From assembly GCA_964473825.1 (NCBI GenBank), contig CAYYQL010000005.1:64759-128758 (forward strand): a DNA stretch of 64,000 bases. The letters are read 5' to 3'. This document shows, piece after piece, positions 1-64,000 of the stretch (position 1 is the stretch's first letter; the number at the start of each line of letters is the position of its first letter). The position numbers and the translations under genes were made by a program. This DNA is from an uncultured archaeon. Its GTDB lineage: Archaea; Asgardarchaeota; Thorarchaeia; Thorarchaeales; Thorarchaeaceae. Under the pieces are notes generated by a model that was given only the letters and a program-made list of their open reading frames with translations, did no database searches and was not told where the DNA came from.

Positions 1-311
1 CTGTATGGGCCGGATGTAATGCCGCGGATTGGTCGTTCGACGACCACCTCAGAGATACTGGATTGAGGGAGATGCCCGAGCTGTTATAGACCTCGAAGAA
101 GCGATTCTTTGATGCATGATCCGCAAAGGTCAGAAACCATGGGACGCGATTCCACTCTTCGTCGTAAGAAACCGTGTCACCTGCGAGGTCCCTACACACG
201 CCACCAGCCTCCTCCACGATGACCTGAGGGATACCAAAGTCGTGCGGACTGGTCGTTTGCTACAGGAAGACCTGAGCGTCCTCCCTCGCGATGACGACCA
301 TCCCGTGATGT
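1..311 (-). pseudogene. C-terminal fragment of inositol monophosphatase/CysQ-family gene
   Basis: Minus-strand translation ...SPHDFGIPQVIVEEAGGVCRDLAGDTVSYDEEWNRVPWFLTFA matches the C-terminus of the 8664-9505 gene. Homology stops at about 311; in-frame TAG at about 260. Confidence 0.8.
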
Positions 312-708
312 GACGTCATAGTATCTAGGGATTACAGGCCGATGAATGGAGCTGCACAGAATCTCGTGCGAGCTCGGAGCGGAAGAGCTAGGAACCAGTC
401 TCGACATCCATTGTGTCACTACCACAACAACCTAGACAAACGCTGCAGTTGTGTAGTGACGGAATCCCCTCGAGGACTAAAGACCCGCTGCCATCAGAGT
501 AGATTACTAACAGACTTGATATTGTTGATGAGTTTTGGTCTGTAGAATAAAGATAACCCCGAGGAAATAGGAACCGACACCCCCACTCTGAAACTCTTGT
601 GTGGCGGATAAGACTTATGAGGATTACAAAGATTCAACCATCTAATCAGCCAGCTATAAGTCTGGCCCTCTCGATGCCCCAGGAGCCCATGATGAGGAGA
701 AACCAATA

Positions 709-1743
709 ATGGACGAGATTGTAGCAATATTACCCGTCGCCGGCAATGCAACACGTCTAAGGCCAATCACCGATCATAAACCTAAGGCGCTGGTTGAGGT
801 CGCGGGAAAACCGGTTATAGAACATATCCTGCTCAACTTGGCACATAGCCAGATTAGAAAGCTAGTTCTTGTCGTCGGCCACCTTAAAGAGGTCCTTATT
901 GATTGGATCGAGGCCAATTTTGGCAATCAGTTCAACCTGAAGTTCGTTGAACAGAAAGAGATGCTCGGACTGGGACACGCAATTCATGCAGCAAAGGCGT
1001 ATCTTAAGGGGGAGGTGCTGATAATGCTAGGAGATGAAATCTTCTCACGGTCATACTCAGAGATGATCAGGGAATCCAGGAGTAGCGACCAGCTAGACGC
1101 CGCTGTGGGAACCATGGTAGTTGACAACCCCTCGCACTATGGCATGCTGGCCCTCGACGATCGAGGATATGTCACAAGGATGGTTGAGAAGCCAAGTAGT
1201 TTCGATGGAAATCTCGCATTAGCGGGGGTCTATTACTTCAAAAGGGGGGAAGACCTTGCAGATGCTCTGGAGTCGTTAGTAAGCAGAGACCTGAATGGTG
1301 GAGAGTATCAGCTCACCGATGCTCTCGATGTGATGGCGACGAAAGGCACCCGATTCAAGACCTTCTCCGTGGGAGAAGGATATGACTGCGGTAGACCTGA
1401 ATCCCTACTACTTAGTAATATTCGCATGCTTGCTGGAAATCATAATGTGGACAGAGAAACTAGAATAGTCGCTTCAGAAATCATTCCACCATGCATCGTT
1501 GCCAAGAACGCAGAAATATCGAACTCGACAGTCGGTCCATTCGTGTCGATTGGAAATGGTGCTAGAGTACATTCATCAGTTCTGTCGAATGTAATAGTGG
1601 AGTCTGAAACACCAGTGGAAGATGAAAGAGTAAGTCATAGCATCATCTCTAATTCGCTAACAGTCAGCCTAGATGATGAAAACATCTCTAAGATAGACTC
1701 GCTCAGCCAGAAACTCTTGGAAGAGCATAGTACCTCAGCCTAG
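709..1743 (+). CDS. Sugar-1-phosphate nucleotidylyltransferase (glucose-1-P thymidylyltransferase-like, long form)
   Basis: ILPVAGNATRLRPIT-KPK, EQKEMLGLGHAI, VEKP and EYQLTDAL motifs; hexapeptide-like C-terminal tail. Confidence 0.92.
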   Translation: MDEIVAILPVAGNATRLRPITDHKPKALVEVAGKPVIEHILLNLAHSQIRKLVLVVGHLKEVLIDWIEANFGNQFNLKFVEQKEMLGLGHAIHAAKAYLKGEVLIMLGDEIFSRSYSEMIRESRSSDQLDAAVGTMVVDNPSHYGMLALDDRGYVTRMVEKPSSFDGNLALAGVYYFKRGEDLADALESLVSRDLNGGEYQLTDALDVMATKGTRFKTFSVGEGYDCGRPESLLLSNIRMLAGNHNVDRETRIVASEIIPPCIVAKNAEISNSTVGPFVSIGNGARVHSSVLSNVIVESETPVEDERVSHSIISNSLTVSLDDENISKIDSLSQKLLEEHSTSA

Positions 1744-2128
1744 TCTCAGAGCCATGGTTCGGGGCAATGAGAACGGGCCCTTCCAGCGTCAAGAGTCTTT
1801 CACTTTGGGCGCACGATTAGCGAACAGTTTCAGGAATAAAGGCCGGAATGAACTTGAAATAGGTCCAAGCGTCTGTGGTTTGTTTGCATTGCAATGACGC
1901 ATTTCCAGTCTCAAGATGTATACGCACAGCGTCGCGGCTCTTGGCGACGTACTTGTTGTGTTTCCCGTATCAATCCATCTCTGCCGAGAGTACAGCACGC
2001 GGCTCCCCGCCCCATCTCTAGTTGTCAGGACAAGAGAGATTACGTGCTCAGGAATCTTCCAATAGTCACCTTTTTAATCTCGGCTCAGTCTGCAGGACAA
2101 GATTCCCTACAGAAGGGATTGAAATTAG

Positions 2129-3133
2129 ATGGCTGTAGGCATTTCACTCGTCGGAGCTGGTCATTGGGGAGAGAACCATCTGAAGGTTCTAAGGAAATTG
2201 AAAGACTCCGGCCTCATAGACCCCCTTGTTGTCTGCGATGCTGACACCGAGGTTGGCAAACAACTTGATGAGGATGGTGAAATCCAGTTCACGACAGATA
2301 TCAATGACATCCTCTCAGACGACGAGATTGTTGCTGTTGATATCGCCACACCAACCATGACTCATTTCGATCTTGGCAAACAAGTCTTGGAATCGGGAAA
2401 GGATGTGCTCATTGAGAAACCGCTGGCATATACGACTGAGGAATGCGATGAGCTGATATTGCTTGCAGAGAAAAATGAAAAGATACTCATGACCGGCCAC
2501 ATATTCCGGTACCATCCTGCTATTCAGATGTTAGTAGGGCAAATAGCAAACGGGAGATTTGGTGACATTCGGAGCATCGATATATCAAGACTCGCTCTGC
2601 GGGCACCTAGGACTGATATGGGTGTGCTCCACGCTCTGGCGATTCATGACATAGACTTAGCGTGTTATCTATACGGGAGGTCCTCACCGGTTTCTGTCTT
2701 CACCATGGCGCAGTCCTTCTATACGAATAACCCAGACGAGATGGCAGTCCTACTCATGGACTTTGGAGAAGGACGGATGGCTAAGATTGAGTCTAGTTGG
2801 CTCAACCCAGTGGCTCATAAAACCCGAACCCTTGAACTGATAGGATCTGAGGGGAGTGCATTCATCGACTTTCTAGATCCTCAAGTTCTCAGGGTGTTCG
2901 ATAGAGGGATAGTACGAAAGGACTCTGATGGAGAGATTGCAGTGACAGACGGCGATATCGCAGTAATGACTACAGATGCAGATATGCCTCTGGATATCGA
3001 GCTGAAACACTTTATTGATTGTGTCATCGAAAGAAAGACACCGCGGACAGATGGGTATGTTGGGCGTAACGCCGTCCGCATGATAGAGTGTGCCTTCAGG
3101 TCCTTGGAAGAGGGCGTTCCAGTCAGATTCTAA
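2129..3133 (+). CDS. Gfo/Idh/MocA oxidoreductase (WbpB-like)
   Basis: VGAGHWG Rossmann motif, KDVLIEKP, HDID; in an operon with an acetyltransferase and an aminotransferase. Confidence 0.9.
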   Translation: MAVGISLVGAGHWGENHLKVLRKLKDSGLIDPLVVCDADTEVGKQLDEDGEIQFTTDINDILSDDEIVAVDIATPTMTHFDLGKQVLESGKDVLIEKPLAYTTEECDELILLAEKNEKILMTGHIFRYHPAIQMLVGQIANGRFGDIRSIDISRLALRAPRTDMGVLHALAIHDIDLACYLYGRSSPVSVFTMAQSFYTNNPDEMAVLLMDFGEGRMAKIESSWLNPVAHKTRTLELIGSEGSAFIDFLDPQVLRVFDRGIVRKDSDGEIAVTDGDIAVMTTDADMPLDIELKHFIDCVIERKTPRTDGYVGRNAVRMIECAFRSLEEGVPVRF

Positions 3134-3145
3134 GGAGAAAGAGGA

Positions 3146-3814
3146 ATGAAAGAATTCAGTGATTGTACCCTCCATAGCACGGCAATCATCTACGATAATG
3201 TAGAACTGGGTGCGGGTGCTGTTGTCGGACCGTACGTTATCATTGGAGAACCTCCAAAGGGTGCCGACCGCGGAGATCTGAAGACAACAATAGGTGTCGA
3301 CTCCGTCATCAGATCGCATTCAGTGATATATGCGGGGAATGCGATTGGTGATAACTTCCAGACCGGACACAAGGCCAATATCAGGGAGCTCAACAAGATA
3401 GGCGACAATGTTTCCATCGGTACTCACTCCATAGTAGAACACCATGTTGATATCGGAAATCACGTCCGCATTCATTCAAATGCATTCATTCCTGAGTTCT
3501 CAGTCCTTGAGGAGGGAGCCTGGATTGGACCAAACGTCGTGTTCACAAATGCTCGACATCCACTCTGTCCTGATGCAAAAAAGTGCCTAGAGGGGCCCAC
3601 AATCAAGAGAAGGGCAAAAATCGGTGCCAACGCAACCCTCGCACCGGGCGTGGTGATAGGTGAGATGGCTCTGGTCGGAGCTGGAGCGGTAGTTGTACAT
3701 GATGTTGCGCCTCGCGCAGTTGTTGTTGGAAACCCCGCAGAAACAATCAAGACAATCGATGACCTTGAATGCGACTATGATATTCGAGAGAAGCCTTATG
3801 ATGAGTGTGATTGA
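3146..3814 (+). CDS. Hexapeptide-repeat N-acetyltransferase (WbpD-like)
   Basis: Left-handed beta-helix repeats, IGPNVVFTN, IGANAT, VVVGNPA. Confidence 0.9.
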   Translation: MKEFSDCTLHSTAIIYDNVELGAGAVVGPYVIIGEPPKGADRGDLKTTIGVDSVIRSHSVIYAGNAIGDNFQTGHKANIRELNKIGDNVSIGTHSIVEHHVDIGNHVRIHSNAFIPEFSVLEEGAWIGPNVVFTNARHPLCPDAKKCLEGPTIKRRAKIGANATLAPGVVIGEMALVGAGAVVVHDVAPRAVVVGNPAETIKTIDDLECDYDIREKPYDECD

Positions 3815-4920
3815 AGATGGACTTGCCAATACCTAGAACGAAGGTAGGCATTGACAAGGAAGCAAAAGACGTGCTTCTGGAGATTATTGATAGCGGGCGT
3901 TTCATCAAAGGACCCCATGCAGAATCCCTGGGCGAGGAATTCGCAGCATACTGTGGAGCAAATCACGGGGTCTGTACTAGCTCGGGATCCACCGCGCTAT
4001 ATGCTGCGCTGAAGGTCGCAGGGATTGGATTAGGAGATGAAGTAATCACTGTCCCGAACACATTCATTGCGACGGTCAATGCCGTGATACTCGCTGGAGC
4101 AAAACCGGTGTTTGCGGACGTGGATAGGAGTACCTTCACCTTGAGTATGGATGCTCTTGAGGCAGCAGTTTCTCCGAGAACTAAGGCAATCATCCCCGTG
4201 CACCTCTATGGCCTCATGGCGCCCATGCCAGAAATCATGGACTTCGCCGAAGACAGGGGGATTACTGTGATTGAGGATGCCTGTCAGGCCCATGGGGCCG
4301 ATATCAATGGGAGAACATCTGGATCATTCGGACACATGTCTGCATTCTCATTCTATCCGTCGAAGCTACTCAATACTGCGGGAGATGGAGGAATAGTAAT
4401 CACGGATGACGAAGATGCAGCAACAAAGATATCTAGATTCGTCAACCATGGGAGAAAGAGTCAGTATGAGTACTCAGAGTTCGGGTTCAACTTCAGGCTT
4501 AGTGAGTTCCAGGCAGCCATCGTCAGGATACATCTTAGGAGTCTGGACAAAGAGATAGCAGATAGGAGGCGTATTGCAGGGTTCTATGATGAACACCTTG
4601 AGGACATAGATGGAATCAAGCCCCCCCACGTGCCAAACGGCTACGGTCATGTCTACTACTTGTATACAACCCTTACACAAAACAGAGATGCGCTAATTCA
4701 GCATCTGGACGAGAAACAGGTTGGAGCCTCGGTTGAATATCCGGTGGTGCTACACCAACTGGACTATGTCAAATCACTCAACCCTGCGATTCCTGAGGGA
4801 GGTCTTGAGAACTCGGAGAAATGTCTTGAGGAGATATGCGCGCTTCCTATGTTCCGTAACATCTCAGAAGAAGAGCTGGGGTATGTAATAGATGCAATCG
4901 AAGAATTCTACGCAAAGTGA
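3811..4920 (+). CDS. DegT/DnrJ/EryC1/StrS aminotransferase (WbpE-like)
   Basis: SSGSTAL, TFIAT, VHLYG, IEDACQAHG, FSFYPSK (PLP lysine). Confidence 0.93.
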   Translation: MKMDLPIPRTKVGIDKEAKDVLLEIIDSGRFIKGPHAESLGEEFAAYCGANHGVCTSSGSTALYAALKVAGIGLGDEVITVPNTFIATVNAVILAGAKPVFADVDRSTFTLSMDALEAAVSPRTKAIIPVHLYGLMAPMPEIMDFAEDRGITVIEDACQAHGADINGRTSGSFGHMSAFSFYPSKLLNTAGDGGIVITDDEDAATKISRFVNHGRKSQYEYSEFGFNFRLSEFQAAIVRIHLRSLDKEIADRRRIAGFYDEHLEDIDGIKPPHVPNGYGHVYYLYTTLTQNRDALIQHLDEKQVGASVEYPVVLHQLDYVKSLNPAIPEGGLENSEKCLEEICALPMFRNISEEELGYVIDAIEEFYAK

Positions 4921-59342: not shown

Positions 59343-59376
59343 AGCTGGAATGCCGATAGCCCAAGCGTCCCACGTA
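59343..59376 (-). repeat. Remnant of the conserved stalk motif (YVGRLGYRHSS)
   Basis: 10/11 aa and 26/34 nt match to YVGILGYRHSS at 63746-63779. Confidence 0.65.
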
Positions 59377-59643
59377 GGTCTTGCCCATACTGCTGTAGCT
59401 CTGGACCAGCTGACCCATCACTGCACACCTCGAAGGGAATGCCAAGCTCGGGAGGGCCCTCTCCCCTTGTTTCACTTTCCGTGGGATGAGGGAGATGTCG
59501 CAGAGCTATCATGAAACAGCCCCCTTATCTACCCAATGCAGTGTCAGTGTCCTCATTCGCTCAGACATGGAGAACAGCAGGCACAATGCCTATGCAAATT
59601 CAGATAACATCTCACATGTATCATGTTGCACGAGGAATGTCGA

Positions 59644-59880
59644 ATGAAAGTAGTCCGGACAGAGGTGAGTTCTGAAGAACATGCCCTCCTCGTTCAACGG
59701 GCCAAGGAGTCACAGAAGAGCCTGAAGGAGCTCCTCCGAGCCATAATCCGTTCCTATCTCTCATCCGAGGGCGTAGATGCAGATAATCCCTTCTTTGCGC
59801 TGAAGTTCAAGGGGGAGAAAGGTGAGCGCGGGTCGGTTGATCATGATGCAACGCTGTATGGAGAGGGGGATTCTCACTGA
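59644..59880 (+). CDS. Ribbon-helix-helix-type antitoxin (orphan)
   Basis: Beta-helix-helix N-terminus and an S-DHD--LYG tail typical of antitoxins that precede PIN toxins. Confidence 0.7.
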   Translation: MKVVRTEVSSEEHALLVQRAKESQKSLKELLRAIIRSYLSSEGVDADNPFFALKFKGEKGERGSVDHDATLYGEGDSH

Positions 59881-60089
59881 TGCCATCCAGTCTGCCAAGT
59901 TTCCTCAATCTCGCGTTCTATCCTCGATGTGACGTCTTCTGAGAAGGGCCACTCGCCTGCCATGTCCAGCAGACTTGTCTTCTCGTAGTTAAGCAATCGG
60001 CGAATCAGGTCGCTGAACGATTCACCATCTCTCTTCAGAGACTTCAGGTGCTTGTAGACCTCGTCGCTTATCATGATGTTCTTCGCCAC
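59874..60089 (-). CDS. vapB: VapB-family antitoxin (DUF217-like, orphan)
   Basis: KNIMISDEVYKHL--LK--GESFSDLIRRL...L-DMAG-W. Confidence 0.85.
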   Translation of the reverse strand: MAKNIMISDEVYKHLKSLKRDGESFSDLIRRLLNYEKTSLLDMAGEWPFSEDVTSRIEREIEETWQTGWHQ

Positions 60090-60432
60090 TGGAGGCACCT
60101 CGTACACAGTAACACAGAATCTCTAATTATACATAGCTGTACTAGGCCAAGGCTGCTTCTTCTCTGAACATCGTGCTCCCATTGAACTGGAGTGACACAC
60201 GCGCGTGTGCAGAACCAAAGAATGTGCATCTGGTCTGAATGCGTAGTAGCCCATTGAGGGCCATGCGCCAGTCTAGGTTGCGTTTACATTAGCCGCTGCT
60301 ATCGAAGATCATGACCGACTTTACCGTGGGTTTGTGATAAGACAGATTGGTATTTTCCGTCGAAATCGCTCGTTTCCCTTTGCTCCTCGCTGGGCACAGG
60401 CACGTTCCGTGTTCAAGGTTGCGGAGATTGAC

Positions 60433-60473
60433 GTCGCAGACCACGTTGATGTCATGGATGCGCATGTCCACCA
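60433..60473 (-). repeat. Direct repeat of the stalk motif (VDMRIHDINVVCD)
   Basis: 40/41 nt identical to 63699-63739. Confidence 0.92.
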
Positions 60474-60598
60474 GATCATAGTCCCCTCTGTTCTTGAGAT
60501 AGAAGATACACCTGAAGTAGCCCTTTGTACTCCCGACCTCGGAGTTGGTCTAGTGGTTCAATAACGCGCATTGCCTTTTCTCGTAAAAGAAGGTGGTG

Positions 60599-60953
60599 TC
60601 ACACGGAGCTCTTTTCAACGGACGCGCGAACTCGTTCAAGCAAGGGTCTCAGTGCCGGGATGTCTTCTTTTGTCACTAGCCATACCGCCTCGAAATCCAC
60701 ATTGAAGTAACTGTGGATGATCTTATCTCTCATTCCGGCCATCGCGCGCCACGGTATTGACGGGTGCCTAGCACGCACACCCTCAGGTATCTGCTTGGTA
60801 GCCTCTCCAATGACCTCAAGGCACCGGATCACCGCATCTGAGGTCCGCAGGTCATCTGAGAATGCCTCGAATGACATATCTCTGACATAGTCCTCGGCTC
60901 GCTCCATGTACTCAAAGAATGTCATTCAGATAAATCGTTGCGGTTTGCGTCAC
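60599..60953 (-). pseudogene. hepT: HEPN (HepT/DUF86) RNase toxin with a 5' frameshift
   Basis: LEVIGEA, IPW, RDKIIH(SY) Rx4H motif. The native GTG start overlaps the MNT stop and reads TQTATIYLNDIL; an extra base at about 60915 shifts the frame. Confidence 0.8.
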
Positions 60954-61252
60954 AGAGGGACTGCCTCCCTCAGAATGGCACTCCTCAACTCCTCTCTGAT
61001 GTTCTTTCTGGGAATTACATCGACTTGAACACCCAGGATGTCGTTGAGATGGTTCTCAAGACTGACTATATGAAGCAGACTAACTGGACTGGAAAACTCC
61101 ACAAGGACATCCAAGTCGCTCCCCTCGTTCTGTTCACCACGAACGTATGATCCAAAGAGGGCGATGCTCTCCACTTTGTACCGCTGTTCAAGCTCGCGCT
61201 TATGAGAATGGAGGATAGTCCTGAGCTCATCTACAGTCCGCAATGGATTCAC
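60950..61252 (-). CDS. mntA: Minimal nucleotidyltransferase antitoxin (MNT)
   Basis: LFGSYVRGEQNEGSDLDVLVEF (GSx10DxD). Confidence 0.93.
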   Translation of the reverse strand: MNPLRTVDELRTILHSHKRELEQRYKVESIALFGSYVRGEQNEGSDLDVLVEFSSPVSLLHIVSLENHLNDILGVQVDVIPRKNIREELRSAILREAVPL

Positions 61253-61573
61253 CGATTTCAGCTAGCTTCTTGTTCTGATAAATCGTTCCTTGAAAGGGCC
61301 GTAGTGCAGCCTCGGCAGCAAGAGCAAATCAGTCCAGAATCCCATTTCGATTACCGAGATTCACCAGTAAGAACTGCCCCCTGAAGACCTTCTCAACCAA
61401 GTCATCTCTCTGGATTATGCGAGATCTAATCTCGGCTTCTTGCCGACCGAGTTCGTCTGAATCAAGGTCAAAACGGGCTTCGATTCTTCAGAAACTCTCG
61501 GAGGCTACTCTCCGAATGAGCAATACAAGACCACGTGACATAGCATGAGTAAAGGATTGTGCACCACCAGTCA

Positions 61574-62002
61574 TTAGTCAGCATGAGTGTCTTTACCTGC
61601 GGTCTTGGACAGCGATTTGCTGAGCCGCACCACCTTCTTGACTTCTCGGATGTTCGCGACAACCACAAGGATTCCCAAGACTATGGAAAATACGAGGGCG
61701 GGCCAGTACCAGTTGATTAGGCCCGGGTCTACTTGGACAGCTGCAAAGAACCCAAAATGGAACCCTATTACGACCAACACACACCCGACCGCGACCAAGC
61801 CAACTCCAGCAAGGTACCACGCGGCTCTGCTGGTAAGATAGAAGGAGTACATCATACGTCCGATGTTTTCACTATGCCCGCGGAGCCTCGGTGTGGTTTT
61901 CAAGAGAAAGACTTGGAGATACTCGCTAGCTTGATCTATCACTTGACTTCCGACGAAGGCGGTAATCATACCCGTGAACATGAACAAGACCGTAAACAAC
62001 AT
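61574..62002 (-). CDS. 3-TM membrane protein, putative immunity/partner B
   Basis: Intact paralog of 62522-62956, sharing VFLLKTTPR-RGHSE, HFGF, VDP and W-WP. Confidence 0.8.
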   Translation of the reverse strand: MLFTVLFMFTGMITAFVGSQVIDQASEYLQVFLLKTTPRLRGHSENIGRMMYSFYLTSRAAWYLAGVGLVAVGCVLVVIGFHFGFFAAVQVDPGLINWYWPALVFSIVLGILVVVANIREVKKVVRLSKSLSKTAGKDTHAD

Positions 62003-62009
62003 GATTCAT

Positions 62010-62420
62010 CTAGCCTCCAGAGGACATAAAATGCACATACTAGACTATAAACAGTAGTGCCATAATCAGAAAGACGATTACCGACCATACGGATAGCTGG
62101 ACTGCAGCCTTTACAGCGGATGTGCTTGTTCCTAAGAACCACGCTAGTAATCCAAGAAGCAGATTCGCCGATATACCCCCAATTCCCTTCACACCGATGG
62201 GAATGGCAAAATAGACAAGTGCAAGGATTAGAAAGAGTACATAGTAGAACCCCTTCAGGTGTGACCCTGTCAAAGCCTCGCAGGTCTCAAGAATGGCCTA
62301 GGCACTAATCCATCCTGAGAATAGCCCAGCTGTCACTCCAATGAATATATGTCCCATGACCTCTCTGAAGGCGGCCATTAGGCATGTAGCACCAAGCACC
62401 TGTAGATCAGACCAGAACAC
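62010..62420 (-). pseudogene. Degraded hydrophobic C-terminal module B
   Basis: GGISANLLLG...KAAV--SVWS-IVF-IM--LFIV*YVHFMSSGG aligns with the C-terminus of module A; in-frame TAGs. Confidence 0.8.
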
Positions 62421-62521
62421 GATTTCCTGCTATAGTCACTCTTCCTAGCCCTGTTCTCCTCCTTCGATGTCATCGCGAGTGACCAGTTCTTGCACGACTA
62501 TTGGCTGTCTTCGCATATCCG

Positions 62522-62956
62522 TCAGCCAGCAGCAGTTTCATCCTCTTCGGGATGGGACAGGGAACCACTTAGTACTGAAACCTTCTTGATATCTTGTATC
62601 TTCCATATGACAACCAGCACTGCAAGGGACATAACAAACACGAAGCTCGGCCACTGCCAGGTAACCAAGCTAGGATCCACTTCAACAATGGCCATAAAGC
62701 CAAAATGATATCCTATGACGAGCAGCACCCAGCCGAACACAACGAGTCCGATTCCCGTAATGTACCAGTAGGTTCTCTTGTTGCGATAGAACGTATACAT
62801 CATGTGGCCCGTGGATTCGCTATGTCCACGAACTCTCGGCGTGGTCTTCAGGAGAAAGACCTCTAGATACTCAAGAGTCTGCTCTATCACTTCATTGCCA
62901 GCAAATGAAGCAATGATACCACCAATCAAAAGCAGGAGTAACAGCCACATATTCAT
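62522..62956 (-). CDS. 3-TM membrane protein, putative immunity/partner A
   Basis: Starts 1-7 nt after the module A stop (ATG at 62956 or 62950); paralog of 61574-62002. Confidence 0.8.
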   Translation of the reverse strand: MNMWLLLLLLIGGIIASFAGNEVIEQTLEYLEVFLLKTTPRVRGHSESTGHMMYTFYRNKRTYWYITGIGLVVFGWVLLVIGYHFGFMAIVEVDPSLVTWQWPSFVFVMSLAVLVVIWKIQDIKKVSVLSGSLSHPEEDETAAG

Positions 62957-62957
62957 T

Positions 62958-63914
62958 CTAACCTCCATATGTCAGGAAATGAGCCGTATAAACAATGAAC
63001 AGCACCCCCATGATTATGAAGACGATTCTTGACCATACGGAAAAGACCACAGCCGCCTTCATGGCCTCTACGCTTACTCCCAAAAGCCATCCCAGAAAGC
63101 CGAGAAGCACATTGGCAGAGATGCCGCCAACCTTCTTCAGACCGGCTGCGATAAAGAAGTAAGCAAGTGCGAGGGTAAAGAAGAATAGTGCTGCACCACC
63201 TGCAGTCCATTGACCGTTGTCGACCAATCCATGAGAGACCCACCACGCATAGCCTCCTATTGCAAGCATTCCGAGGACGACCGCCCCTATGCCCCAGAAT
63301 CCCGTTGCCGGGTTTTGCGCTACTACACACGTAATCATGAGTGCGTATGTCATAAGCCCAATAGCCAATGAGAATCCAGCAACGGCAAGGGCATTATTGA
63401 AATCTTCCGCAGTTGCCCCCATCGAGTCAGAATGATATACGGTCGTTACTTGAAGGAGGTCCACTGCCATGTGCAGGATTAGGGCGAGTGTATCAGGTCT
63501 GAATGCGTAATAGTGCAATAAGGGCCATGGGCCAGTCCAATTCGCGTGTACGCTAGCTGCTGCAATCTGAAGGTCACTATCAACCTTGCTGAGGGTCTGT
63601 GGTGAGATAGATTGGTCTGTTCCATCAAGGTCATTCGTTTCCTCTGGGTCCTCGCTGGGTGGCGGGTCATCCGGGTAGCTTGGATTGGGCCTGCTGAGGT
63701 CGCAGACCACGTTGATGTCGTGGATGCGCATGTCCACCAACCCATAGCTGGAGTGACGGTAGCCAAGGATGCCCACGTACTGGATCACCCTGCTGGCGTT
63801 GTCCACCTCGACGATGGGATACGCACTCCCCTGACCATCGATGGAGGTATAGATGGCACCCTGTCCGCCGAAGCCCTCGTCCCACCAGAGCTTCCCGGTC
63901 TTGGTGAGGGAGGA
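62958..63914 (-). other. Start-less C-terminal module A: conserved beta-rich stalk, Pro/Asp linker, multi-TM hydrophobic tip
   Basis: The frame is open from 63914 (SSLTKTGKLWWDEGFGGQGAIY...) with no start codon until an internal GTG at 63806; TGA at 63915-63917. Confidence 0.75.
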
Positions 63915-64000
63915 TCAGGCCGTAGACGACTCCAATGAACAATGGGATGAGCCAGGCCTACCAAATAAGGAGCATTGCCACAAAAGCTGTAGTCAGCTCT

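Follow-up and report, generated by a model that had tools for sequence, protein, structure and literature searches.

In the CdiA-CT/CdiI, Rhs-CT/RhsI and MafB/MafI systems, a constant body for export or presentation ends in a variable C-terminal module, and a small cognate gene lies directly 3' of it. Rows of 5'-truncated module/partner copies follow that keep a stretch for recombination, and they are accompanied by displaced fragments of earlier modules and by stand-alone partner genes. We found the same traits in a locus at the end of a 64,000-nucleotide (nt) stretch of DNA (hereafter the window; positions 64,759 to 128,758 of contig CAYYQL010000005.1, assembly GCA_964473825.1) from an uncultured Asgard archaeon of the family Thorarchaeaceae, and in its relatives. 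This genome and nine relatives have a constant body, a variable tail, a small membrane gene that we call the partner, and rows of truncated tail/partner cassettes. By analogy with the systems named above, we give an even chance to the reading that the locus is a polymorphic membrane-toxin/immunity-like system, in which the array would be a reservoir of cassettes. In the genomes sampled, the cassette system is seen in one Asgard family only.

No part of the locus is homologous to the Cdi, Rhs or MafB systems. Pfam and NCBIfam searches with the window proteins and with seven long relatives gave no TPS, FHA, LXG or RHS domain, no RHS repeat match and no VENN-type pre-toxin motif, and the body is built of jelly-roll repeats. 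The Rhs toxins, by comparison, have YD/RHS repeats that make up a shell and a PxxxxDPxGL motif where the core ends. The variable modules also differ, as they appear to form one membrane-helix superfamily and not a set of unrelated enzymes, and the exchanged block begins inside the tail. Measured against the polymorphic toxins as a class, the constant body, the specific downstream gene and the recombining truncated cassettes are all present, although the copy in this genome is without the export part, and an assortment of unrelated toxin modules is missing. The C-terminal modules of polymorphic toxins typically comprise many unrelated folds and activities, and such systems were reported to be generally absent from archaea, with the few archaeal cases described as borrowed from bacteria (Zhang et al., 2012; PMC3482391).

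The closest functional picture would be that of a pore-forming colicin and its membrane immunity protein. For the pore-forming colicins A, B, N, E1, Ia and K, immunity is provided by inner-membrane proteins of three to four helices that recognize the hydrophobic C-terminal helices of the toxin within the membrane. The colicin pore domains have a ten-helix fold, a water-soluble bundle with one buried hairpin, and are plasmid-borne and released by lysis. As in the colicins, a single helical and putatively membrane-active domain seems to have been diversified here, and its last helices co-vary with the partner; unlike in the colicins, the helices of the tail are strongly hydrophobic throughout and number four to five, and there is no sequence match between the two. 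Polymorphic membrane pairs are also found in Proteus mirabilis (IdsD/IdsE, with variable regions next to membrane segments) and in Myxococcus (TraA/SitA-SitI, with a lectin-like PA14 receptor for contact), where they decide the outcome of cell-cell contact. These pairs are not homologous to ours, and they need a type VI secretion system or outer-membrane exchange, for which we know of no counterpart here.

Among archaea, the VARTIG module of the Thermococcales has been likened to polymorphic toxin systems, because the C-terminal part of a large surface protein is hypervariable by recombination (Makarova et al., 2021; PMC8416519). It belongs to a different lineage and to different protein families; it is the immunoglobulin domain that varies, and a membrane tail, a small membrane partner in one-to-one pairing and comparable rows of truncated copies are all missing. 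In a full-text literature search, outside of which one 2019 archaeal survey fell, no account of a system like this one from an Asgard archaeon came up. To our knowledge, almost nothing is known about competition or recognition among Asgard archaea, the closest known relatives of eukaryotes. The locus described here follows the full genetic logic of polymorphic toxin loci, but its proteins are lineage-specific and its variable part is buried in the membrane. Should the locus serve as a weapon, archaea would have evolved a membrane toxin/immunity system of their own; should it encode a recognition code, it would be relevant to the way in which these cells handle close membrane contact.

The Cassette Array and Its Continuation on a Second Contig

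The locus comprises window positions 59343-64000 and the first 4.1 kb of contig C58, which continues the contig of the window (C5). Coordinates are those of the window, lengths are given in amino acids (aa), and all cassette features are on the minus strand. In the order of that strand they are as follows.

C58, same strand order: 635-aa gene, 138-aa membrane gene, 361-aa orphan, 182-aa membrane gene, then module A
63946-64000, no strand: contig overlap, the last 55 nt of C5 being the first 55 nt of C58, a match that is unique in the genome
63914-62961, minus: module A, frame open from stop to stop, 318 aa
63699-63914, minus: handle of module A, the final 72 residues of a lectin-like repeat, without start codon
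63540-63698, minus: linker of module A, rich in Pro/Asp/Glu, residues 73-125
63303-63539, minus: N-part of the tail of module A, residues 126-204, with the conserved W-T-G-P-W-P junction, a small beta sheet and the first long helix
62961-63302, minus: C-part of the tail of module A, residues 205-318, the last hydrophobic helices and the portion that travels with the partner
62968-62525, minus: partner A, intact, 148 aa, three hydrophobic segments
62357-62013, minus: tip B remnant, matching residues 209-318 of module A, with in-frame stops
62002-61577, minus: partner B, intact membrane protein of 142 aa, without an intact tip
60588-60162, minus: third copy, a decayed A-type module with stalk pieces, linker and junction, its tail lost
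59433-59344, minus: fourth copy and last stalk remnant, 22-aa and 11-aa pieces of the second lectin-like repeat

The earliest possible start of module A is an internal GTG at 63806, and none lies ahead of the conserved stalk piece. The ATG of partner A lies just before the end of module A, for an overlap of 11 nt. The tip B remnant is 46-49% identical to the matching residues of module A and has no homology to it upstream; its portion 62357-62255 (residues 209-238, one stop) is part of a block common with the sister species G002, and 62232-62043 is the C-part of a B-type tail. The two partners are 52% identical (E = 1.7e-48). The third copy is broken by stops, frameshifts and deletions, and the two stalk pieces of the fourth have been brought together by an internal deletion. 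Our results agree with an initial annotation of this DNA, which had listed a start-less module A, an intact partner A, a degraded tip B homologous to A at its C-terminus only, an intact partner B roughly half identical to A, and two further stalk remnants. The same annotation placed a hydrophobic gene remnant at the window edge, which has to be withdrawn: positions 63918-64000 are intergenic, and the next gene, that of the 182-aa partner, stops ~68 nt past the window end, with module A following ~150 nt after it.

Inspection of the sequence past position 64000, as the annotation had advised, led to C58, with its 635-aa gene and partner and its orphan/partner pair. As 55 nt of unique identity is the signature of a k-mer assembly break, we take C5 and C58 to abut. 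Module A matches the 635-aa gene with E = 3.7e-67 and 92.7% nt identity over 274 nt, and the tail of the 361-aa orphan is 44% identical to module A; judged by such alignments, the copy-to-copy matches are far beyond chance. Three copies have in common only the handle, a stretch of 200-274 nt with 92.6-92.7% identity that corresponds to residues 293-383 of the 635-aa protein. The summed contig depth of the source runs at 63652-63835 is ~3x that of the flanks (179 vs 56), which fits three near-identical copies of the handle and explains the assembly break there.

A full-length parent gene had been expected upstream or elsewhere in the genome. A longer gene with the same stalk and another tip does lie upstream, on C58, but it is cut at its 5' end, and the assembly yielded no intact parent. 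The 635-aa protein begins inside the first repeat and has neither a signal peptide nor the N-terminal domain (N-domain) of its relatives, and this "parent" is thus itself a large 5'-truncated copy. A tblastn search with the N-domains of four relatives did not find this domain in the assembly, which is 95.7% complete. With no intact delivery gene found in the genome, the locus would hold silent tails together with partner genes that are still under selection.

Complete Genes in Related Genomes

A search of 1.84 billion representative proteins returned 186 relatives, and whole-genome searches were positive for 13 of the 24 genomes sampled within the family vs 0 of the 16 sampled outside it. Large secreted-type proteins with a constant stalk, variable tips and a small downstream gene had been predicted by the annotation, and they are what the relatives contain. 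In the long members (900-1,700 aa), a signal-peptide-like segment comes first, followed by an N-domain of ~450 aa, two to four lectin-like repeats of the concanavalin A (ConA) type, a Pro/Asp/Glu linker, a conserved junction, W-T-G-(P/W)-W-P-x-L-H, and a variable hydrophobic end, which in a complete gene is a bundle of four to five membrane helices. Directly 3' of the complete gene comes a small membrane gene, with rows of 5'-truncated tail and partner copies behind it. The genomes G021 and G016 have the order complete gene, partner, orphan, partner; in many genomes the arrays run up to seven or more cassettes. The conserved portion of these proteins is the exposed lectin-like part, and variation is found in the part embedded in the membrane. 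Relatives of type A are few: among 5.8 billion proteins, there are three for tail A and one for partner A, and a protein-database search found the A-type C-part on no protein longer than 557 aa.

Two of the related loci depart from this scheme. In L038 (G014 contig C17, minus strand), a protein of >1,660 aa has the same handle, junction and tail on a different body, and a partner gene accompanies it, indicating that tails are mounted on more than one kind of body; P0026, a database relative of this protein, contains DUF2341 and Glce beta-sandwich domains. In L040 (G008 contig C119, 2471-5956, plus strand), the main gene is split into two overlapping frames of 717 aa and 474 aa, either by a frameshift or by a sequencing error.

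Recombination and the Unit of Exchange

Within this genome, the handles of module A and of the C58 gene are 92.7% identical. The orthologue of module A in the sister species G002 has a handle with only 82.5% identity to that of module A, but with 91.6-92.1% identity to the other handles of G002. Handles thus evolve in concert, being homogenised within each genome. The remainder of module A is a mosaic. Compared with G002, the synonymous divergence (dS) is 0.185 in the C-part of the tail and 0.127 in partner A, whereas it is 1.38 in the N-part and 1.14 in the linker. Nucleotide identity with G002 stays at 90-95% on through partner A to position 62255. Partner A is 92% identical to its orthologue, with a ratio of nonsynonymous to synonymous divergence (omega) of 0.28; omega is 0.04 for the N-part, and 0.04-0.11 for N-part and linker. 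This contrast in dS indicates that a block made up of the last helices, the partner and a 270-nt flank has moved recently. From these alignments, the unit of exchange is the last ~110 residues of the tail plus the partner, and it begins inside the tail near residue 205. A pair from another genus pair (G008/G023) has the same pattern, with similarity of 0.82 for the partner, 0.81 for the C-part and only 0.21 for the N-part.

The source of the assembly is a microbial-mat metagenome; none of the runs listed with this stretch is an RNA run. Another sample from that study (run X3) contains a population whose contigs have 0-1 differences each from the window in the flanks of the unit. A 610-nt contig of X3 joins position 63181 to 62232, skipping 948 nt in frame and in register, such that homologous codons are paired (Phe245 of A with Phe22 of the B frame). 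The skipped 948 nt run from codon 245 of tail A across partner A and the flank, and X3 has no read cover over them. By this one low-depth contig, the sister population differs by exactly one in-frame cassette unit, either gained here or lost in X3. The right end of the block common with G002 (62255) lies 23 nt from the X3 joint; with breakpoints clustered in this way, the tip B remnant looks composite. We also considered that the joint arose by simple homologous crossover between the two tips, A and B, of this genome, which as such is unlikely because the local nt identity there is low.

The concerted handles, the mosaic of dS and the one-unit joint of X3 bear out the cassette swapping that the annotation had proposed. 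The unit that moves with the partner starts inside the tail and not at the stalk. The tips do differ from one cassette to the next, as proposed, but they appear to be one diverged membrane-helix tail and not a collection of unrelated toxin domains. Tip and partner were also expected to co-vary, and they do so with a single exception, as follows.

Tails and Partners Vary Together

The parsed set consists of the joined locus and 20 loci from nine relatives, with 42 intact cassettes in 10 genomes. Tails are 140-260 aa long after the handle and have two to five hydrophobic segments; behind each of the 42, no more than ~100 nt away, lies a small frame that encodes two to four such segments. Tail similarity and partner similarity are correlated over these cassettes (Pearson 0.78, a value reached by none of 5,000 Mantel permutations), and five of the six independent tail types found in more than one genome keep the same partner family. 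The correlation denotes a shared unit and not binding, since linked genes are inherited together. Similarity of the partners is followed more closely by the C-part (r = 0.78) than by the N-part (r = 0.60). Most tail pairs (824 of 861) have no BLAST similarity; iterated profiles merge most tails into one superfamily, a merging possibly inflated by membrane composition, and the partners form 19 groups.

Partners outlast their tails. In the sampled loci, at least nine intact partner-like genes are without an intact tail, and intact tails without a partner number 0-2. Three stand-alone partner genes lie behind cassette A in G002, and a further G002 partner of the B type, next to a VapBC pair, has no tail at all. 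This gene and partner B are both intact at a dS of 0.79, with an omega of 0.22, the same value as between partners A and B; for the orphan tail A and its orthologue omega is 0.12. Intact tail-less partners with such a low omega seem to be useful on their own, and their retention favours an immunity-like role.

Predicted Folds and Family Searches

The model of the repeat (predicted local distance difference test, pLDDT, 88) is a jelly-roll sandwich with the predicted fold of concanavalin A-like lectins/glucanases, and it matched 171 PDB chains at E <= 0.001 with target-normalised template modelling (TM) scores of 0.43-0.62. The top matches are the CBM2 of the phage J-1 Dit protein (E = 4e-6), the lectin domain of calreticulin, galectins, PL7 lyases and GH16 glucanases, all of them ConA-type domains that bind or cleave carbohydrates. 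The stalk is lectin-like in this sense, by fold match of a predicted structure. In the model of tail A (pLDDT 86), a helix is followed by a four-stranded sheet formed from the conserved junction and then by long hydrophobic helices. VIA-align with this model retrieved generic or designed helix bundles only (Z up to 10.4), and the colicin pore domain is absent from the fold-search matches of the tail, an absence that is inconclusive. Co-folding of tail A with partner A gave a score of 0.00, which speaks neither for nor against binding.

For module A, both partners, the C58 proteins and the seven long relatives, no Pfam or NCBIfam family scored above its cut-off. A holin-like match of partner B (E = 0.0077) is below the cut-off and was set aside. 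Sequence and profile searches of the PDB gave no match for the 635-aa protein or for the alignment of full-length relatives. In the N-domain of the relatives, His105-Gly-Gly and Cys140 are invariant in nine sequences. Clan CD (caspase-like) peptidases have a catalytic dyad of His-Gly and Ala/x-Cys after hydrophobic strands in an alpha/beta fold. Held against this pattern, the N-domain has the residues just named and no Pfam, PDB sequence or PDB profile match, such that a similarity to clan CD would rest on the motif; a search of the ESM Atlas with the N-domain gave scores that are all <0.8, which is noise level. A distantly related N-domain (~23% identity, with the same His-Gly ... Cys pattern) is encoded on contig C73 of this genome (G000; 76-4830, plus strand), in a 1,585-aa frame with a signal-like N-terminus and a different body that may belong to a second family using the same N-domain.

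Possible Functions of the Tail/Partner Pairs

If the locus is a polymorphic membrane-toxin/immunity-like system, the tail would be a membrane-acting effector, pore-like or membrane-disrupting, that would reach the membrane of a neighbour on contact, with the lectin-like repeats mediating. The partner would be the cognate intramembrane immunity protein, in the manner of the immunity proteins of pore-forming colicins, and stand-alone partners would be kept for protection against the tails of neighbours. Several observations weigh against this reading. Selection on the tails is purifying and not diversifying (omega 0.04-0.28), and the tails look like diverged versions of one membrane-helix tail. 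Pfam and NCBIfam detected no known toxin or immunity family in any part of the system, and the fold search with the tail model returned nothing specific, claudins being the best Foldseek match (E = 0.26). In a protein that starts with a signal peptide and ends in four to five strongly hydrophobic helices, these helices should lodge in the membrane of the producer itself, and we know of no route by which the tail could pass into another cell. No intact parent gene was found in this assembly, and every A-type tail seen is on a short orphan or in a frame that a contig end interrupts. The pairing has its exception: the tail of the 635-aa gene and that of the G008 main gene (L040), its closest relative, score 0.51, and their partners are unrelated. 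The joint of X3, finally, is a single contig with a depth of 5.6.

The pairs could also have a non-lethal role in identity or compatibility, tail and partner acting as a membrane lock-and-key that, on cell-cell contact or membrane exchange, tells kin from non-kin without killing while the repeats make contact, much as Proteus IdsD/IdsE or Myxococcus TraA do. Tails that are all versions of one membrane domain, and not diverse enzymes, would suit such a role, as would a lectin-like surface protein as body, co-variation that is tightest over the last helices, near-identical populations that differ in cassette content, and a tail that, from its hydrophobicity, is expected to remain in the producer's membrane. 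We nevertheless hold it to be unlikely, for the purifying selection on tail-less partners fits protection against foreign tails better than it fits a matched pair, and no homology links the locus to any known recognition system. A membrane-level self/non-self system, in which the lectin-like protein joins membranes and the match of tail and partner decides between tolerated contact or exchange and damage, is in our view decidedly unlikely. Alternatively, the tail could be a variable anchor for a lectin-like adhesin, with the partner helping insertion or stability and the turnover being surface variation of the pilE/pilS kind or neutral churn. Anchored surface proteins have this very topology, with a signal peptide and a helix bundle at the C-terminus; antigenic-variation loci, too, are marked by silent 5'-truncated copies; and both the strong purifying selection on the tail and the lack of a toxin signature would be expected. 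Yet the variation lies in the membrane-embedded part while the exposed lectin-like part is conserved; a helper has no reason to outlast a broken or absent tail, and such partners are intact with an omega of 0.22; and one partner type per tail type, with at least 19 partner families, is unexpected for a general helper. On balance an anchor, too, has a rather low probability.

A last account would be that a unit of two membrane-protein genes was simply duplicated in tandem and then decayed, the copies having no function as cassettes. The copies in this genome are indeed truncated or decayed, but handles are alike within a genome while the tails differ, the same C-part and partner sit on different N-parts across genera, exchange between lineages has been recent, arrays of up to seven or more cassettes recur in many genomes, and the orphan tail A has kept an omega of 0.12 against its orthologue. 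We regard this account as very improbable. What is new here, under the toxin/immunity-like reading and the others, is the concerted evolution of the handles, the unit of ~110 residues plus partner, the difference of one unit between populations, and the purifying selection on partners without tips. The defined exchange unit, the two related pairs A and B, and the natural one-cassette polymorphism in a microbial-mat population are convenient handles for experiments.

Neighbouring Genes and Other Observations

Two further features lie between the copies of the array.

60602-61252, minus: MNT nucleotidyltransferase and HepT (HEPN RNase) toxin-antitoxin pair, between partner B and the third copy
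59877-60107, minus: VapB-like antitoxin, between the third and fourth copies, with no PIN toxin adjoining

Both members of the first pair are above the curated cut-offs (NTP_transf_2, E = 5.6e-19, 68.8 bits; HepT-like, E = 3e-30, 104.8 bits), and their position within the cassette array makes the latter also a small island of conflict genes. As for the VapB-like gene, contigs of the read table break at 59874/59881 with other sequence on both sides, one of which resembles the start of a PIN-domain gene. A near-identical VapB is found on G002 contig C21 (L057:2-663, plus strand), where a PIN-domain VapC comes next and, after that, a stand-alone partner gene of the B type.

Far from the locus, another isolated fragment of the first lectin-like repeat is present on G000 contig C8 (7474-7950, minus strand), with ~35-39% identity over 50-60 aa. 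The genome of the window also encodes a true actin (437 bits) and two Snf7 proteins, which fits its Asgard (Thorarchaeota) label.

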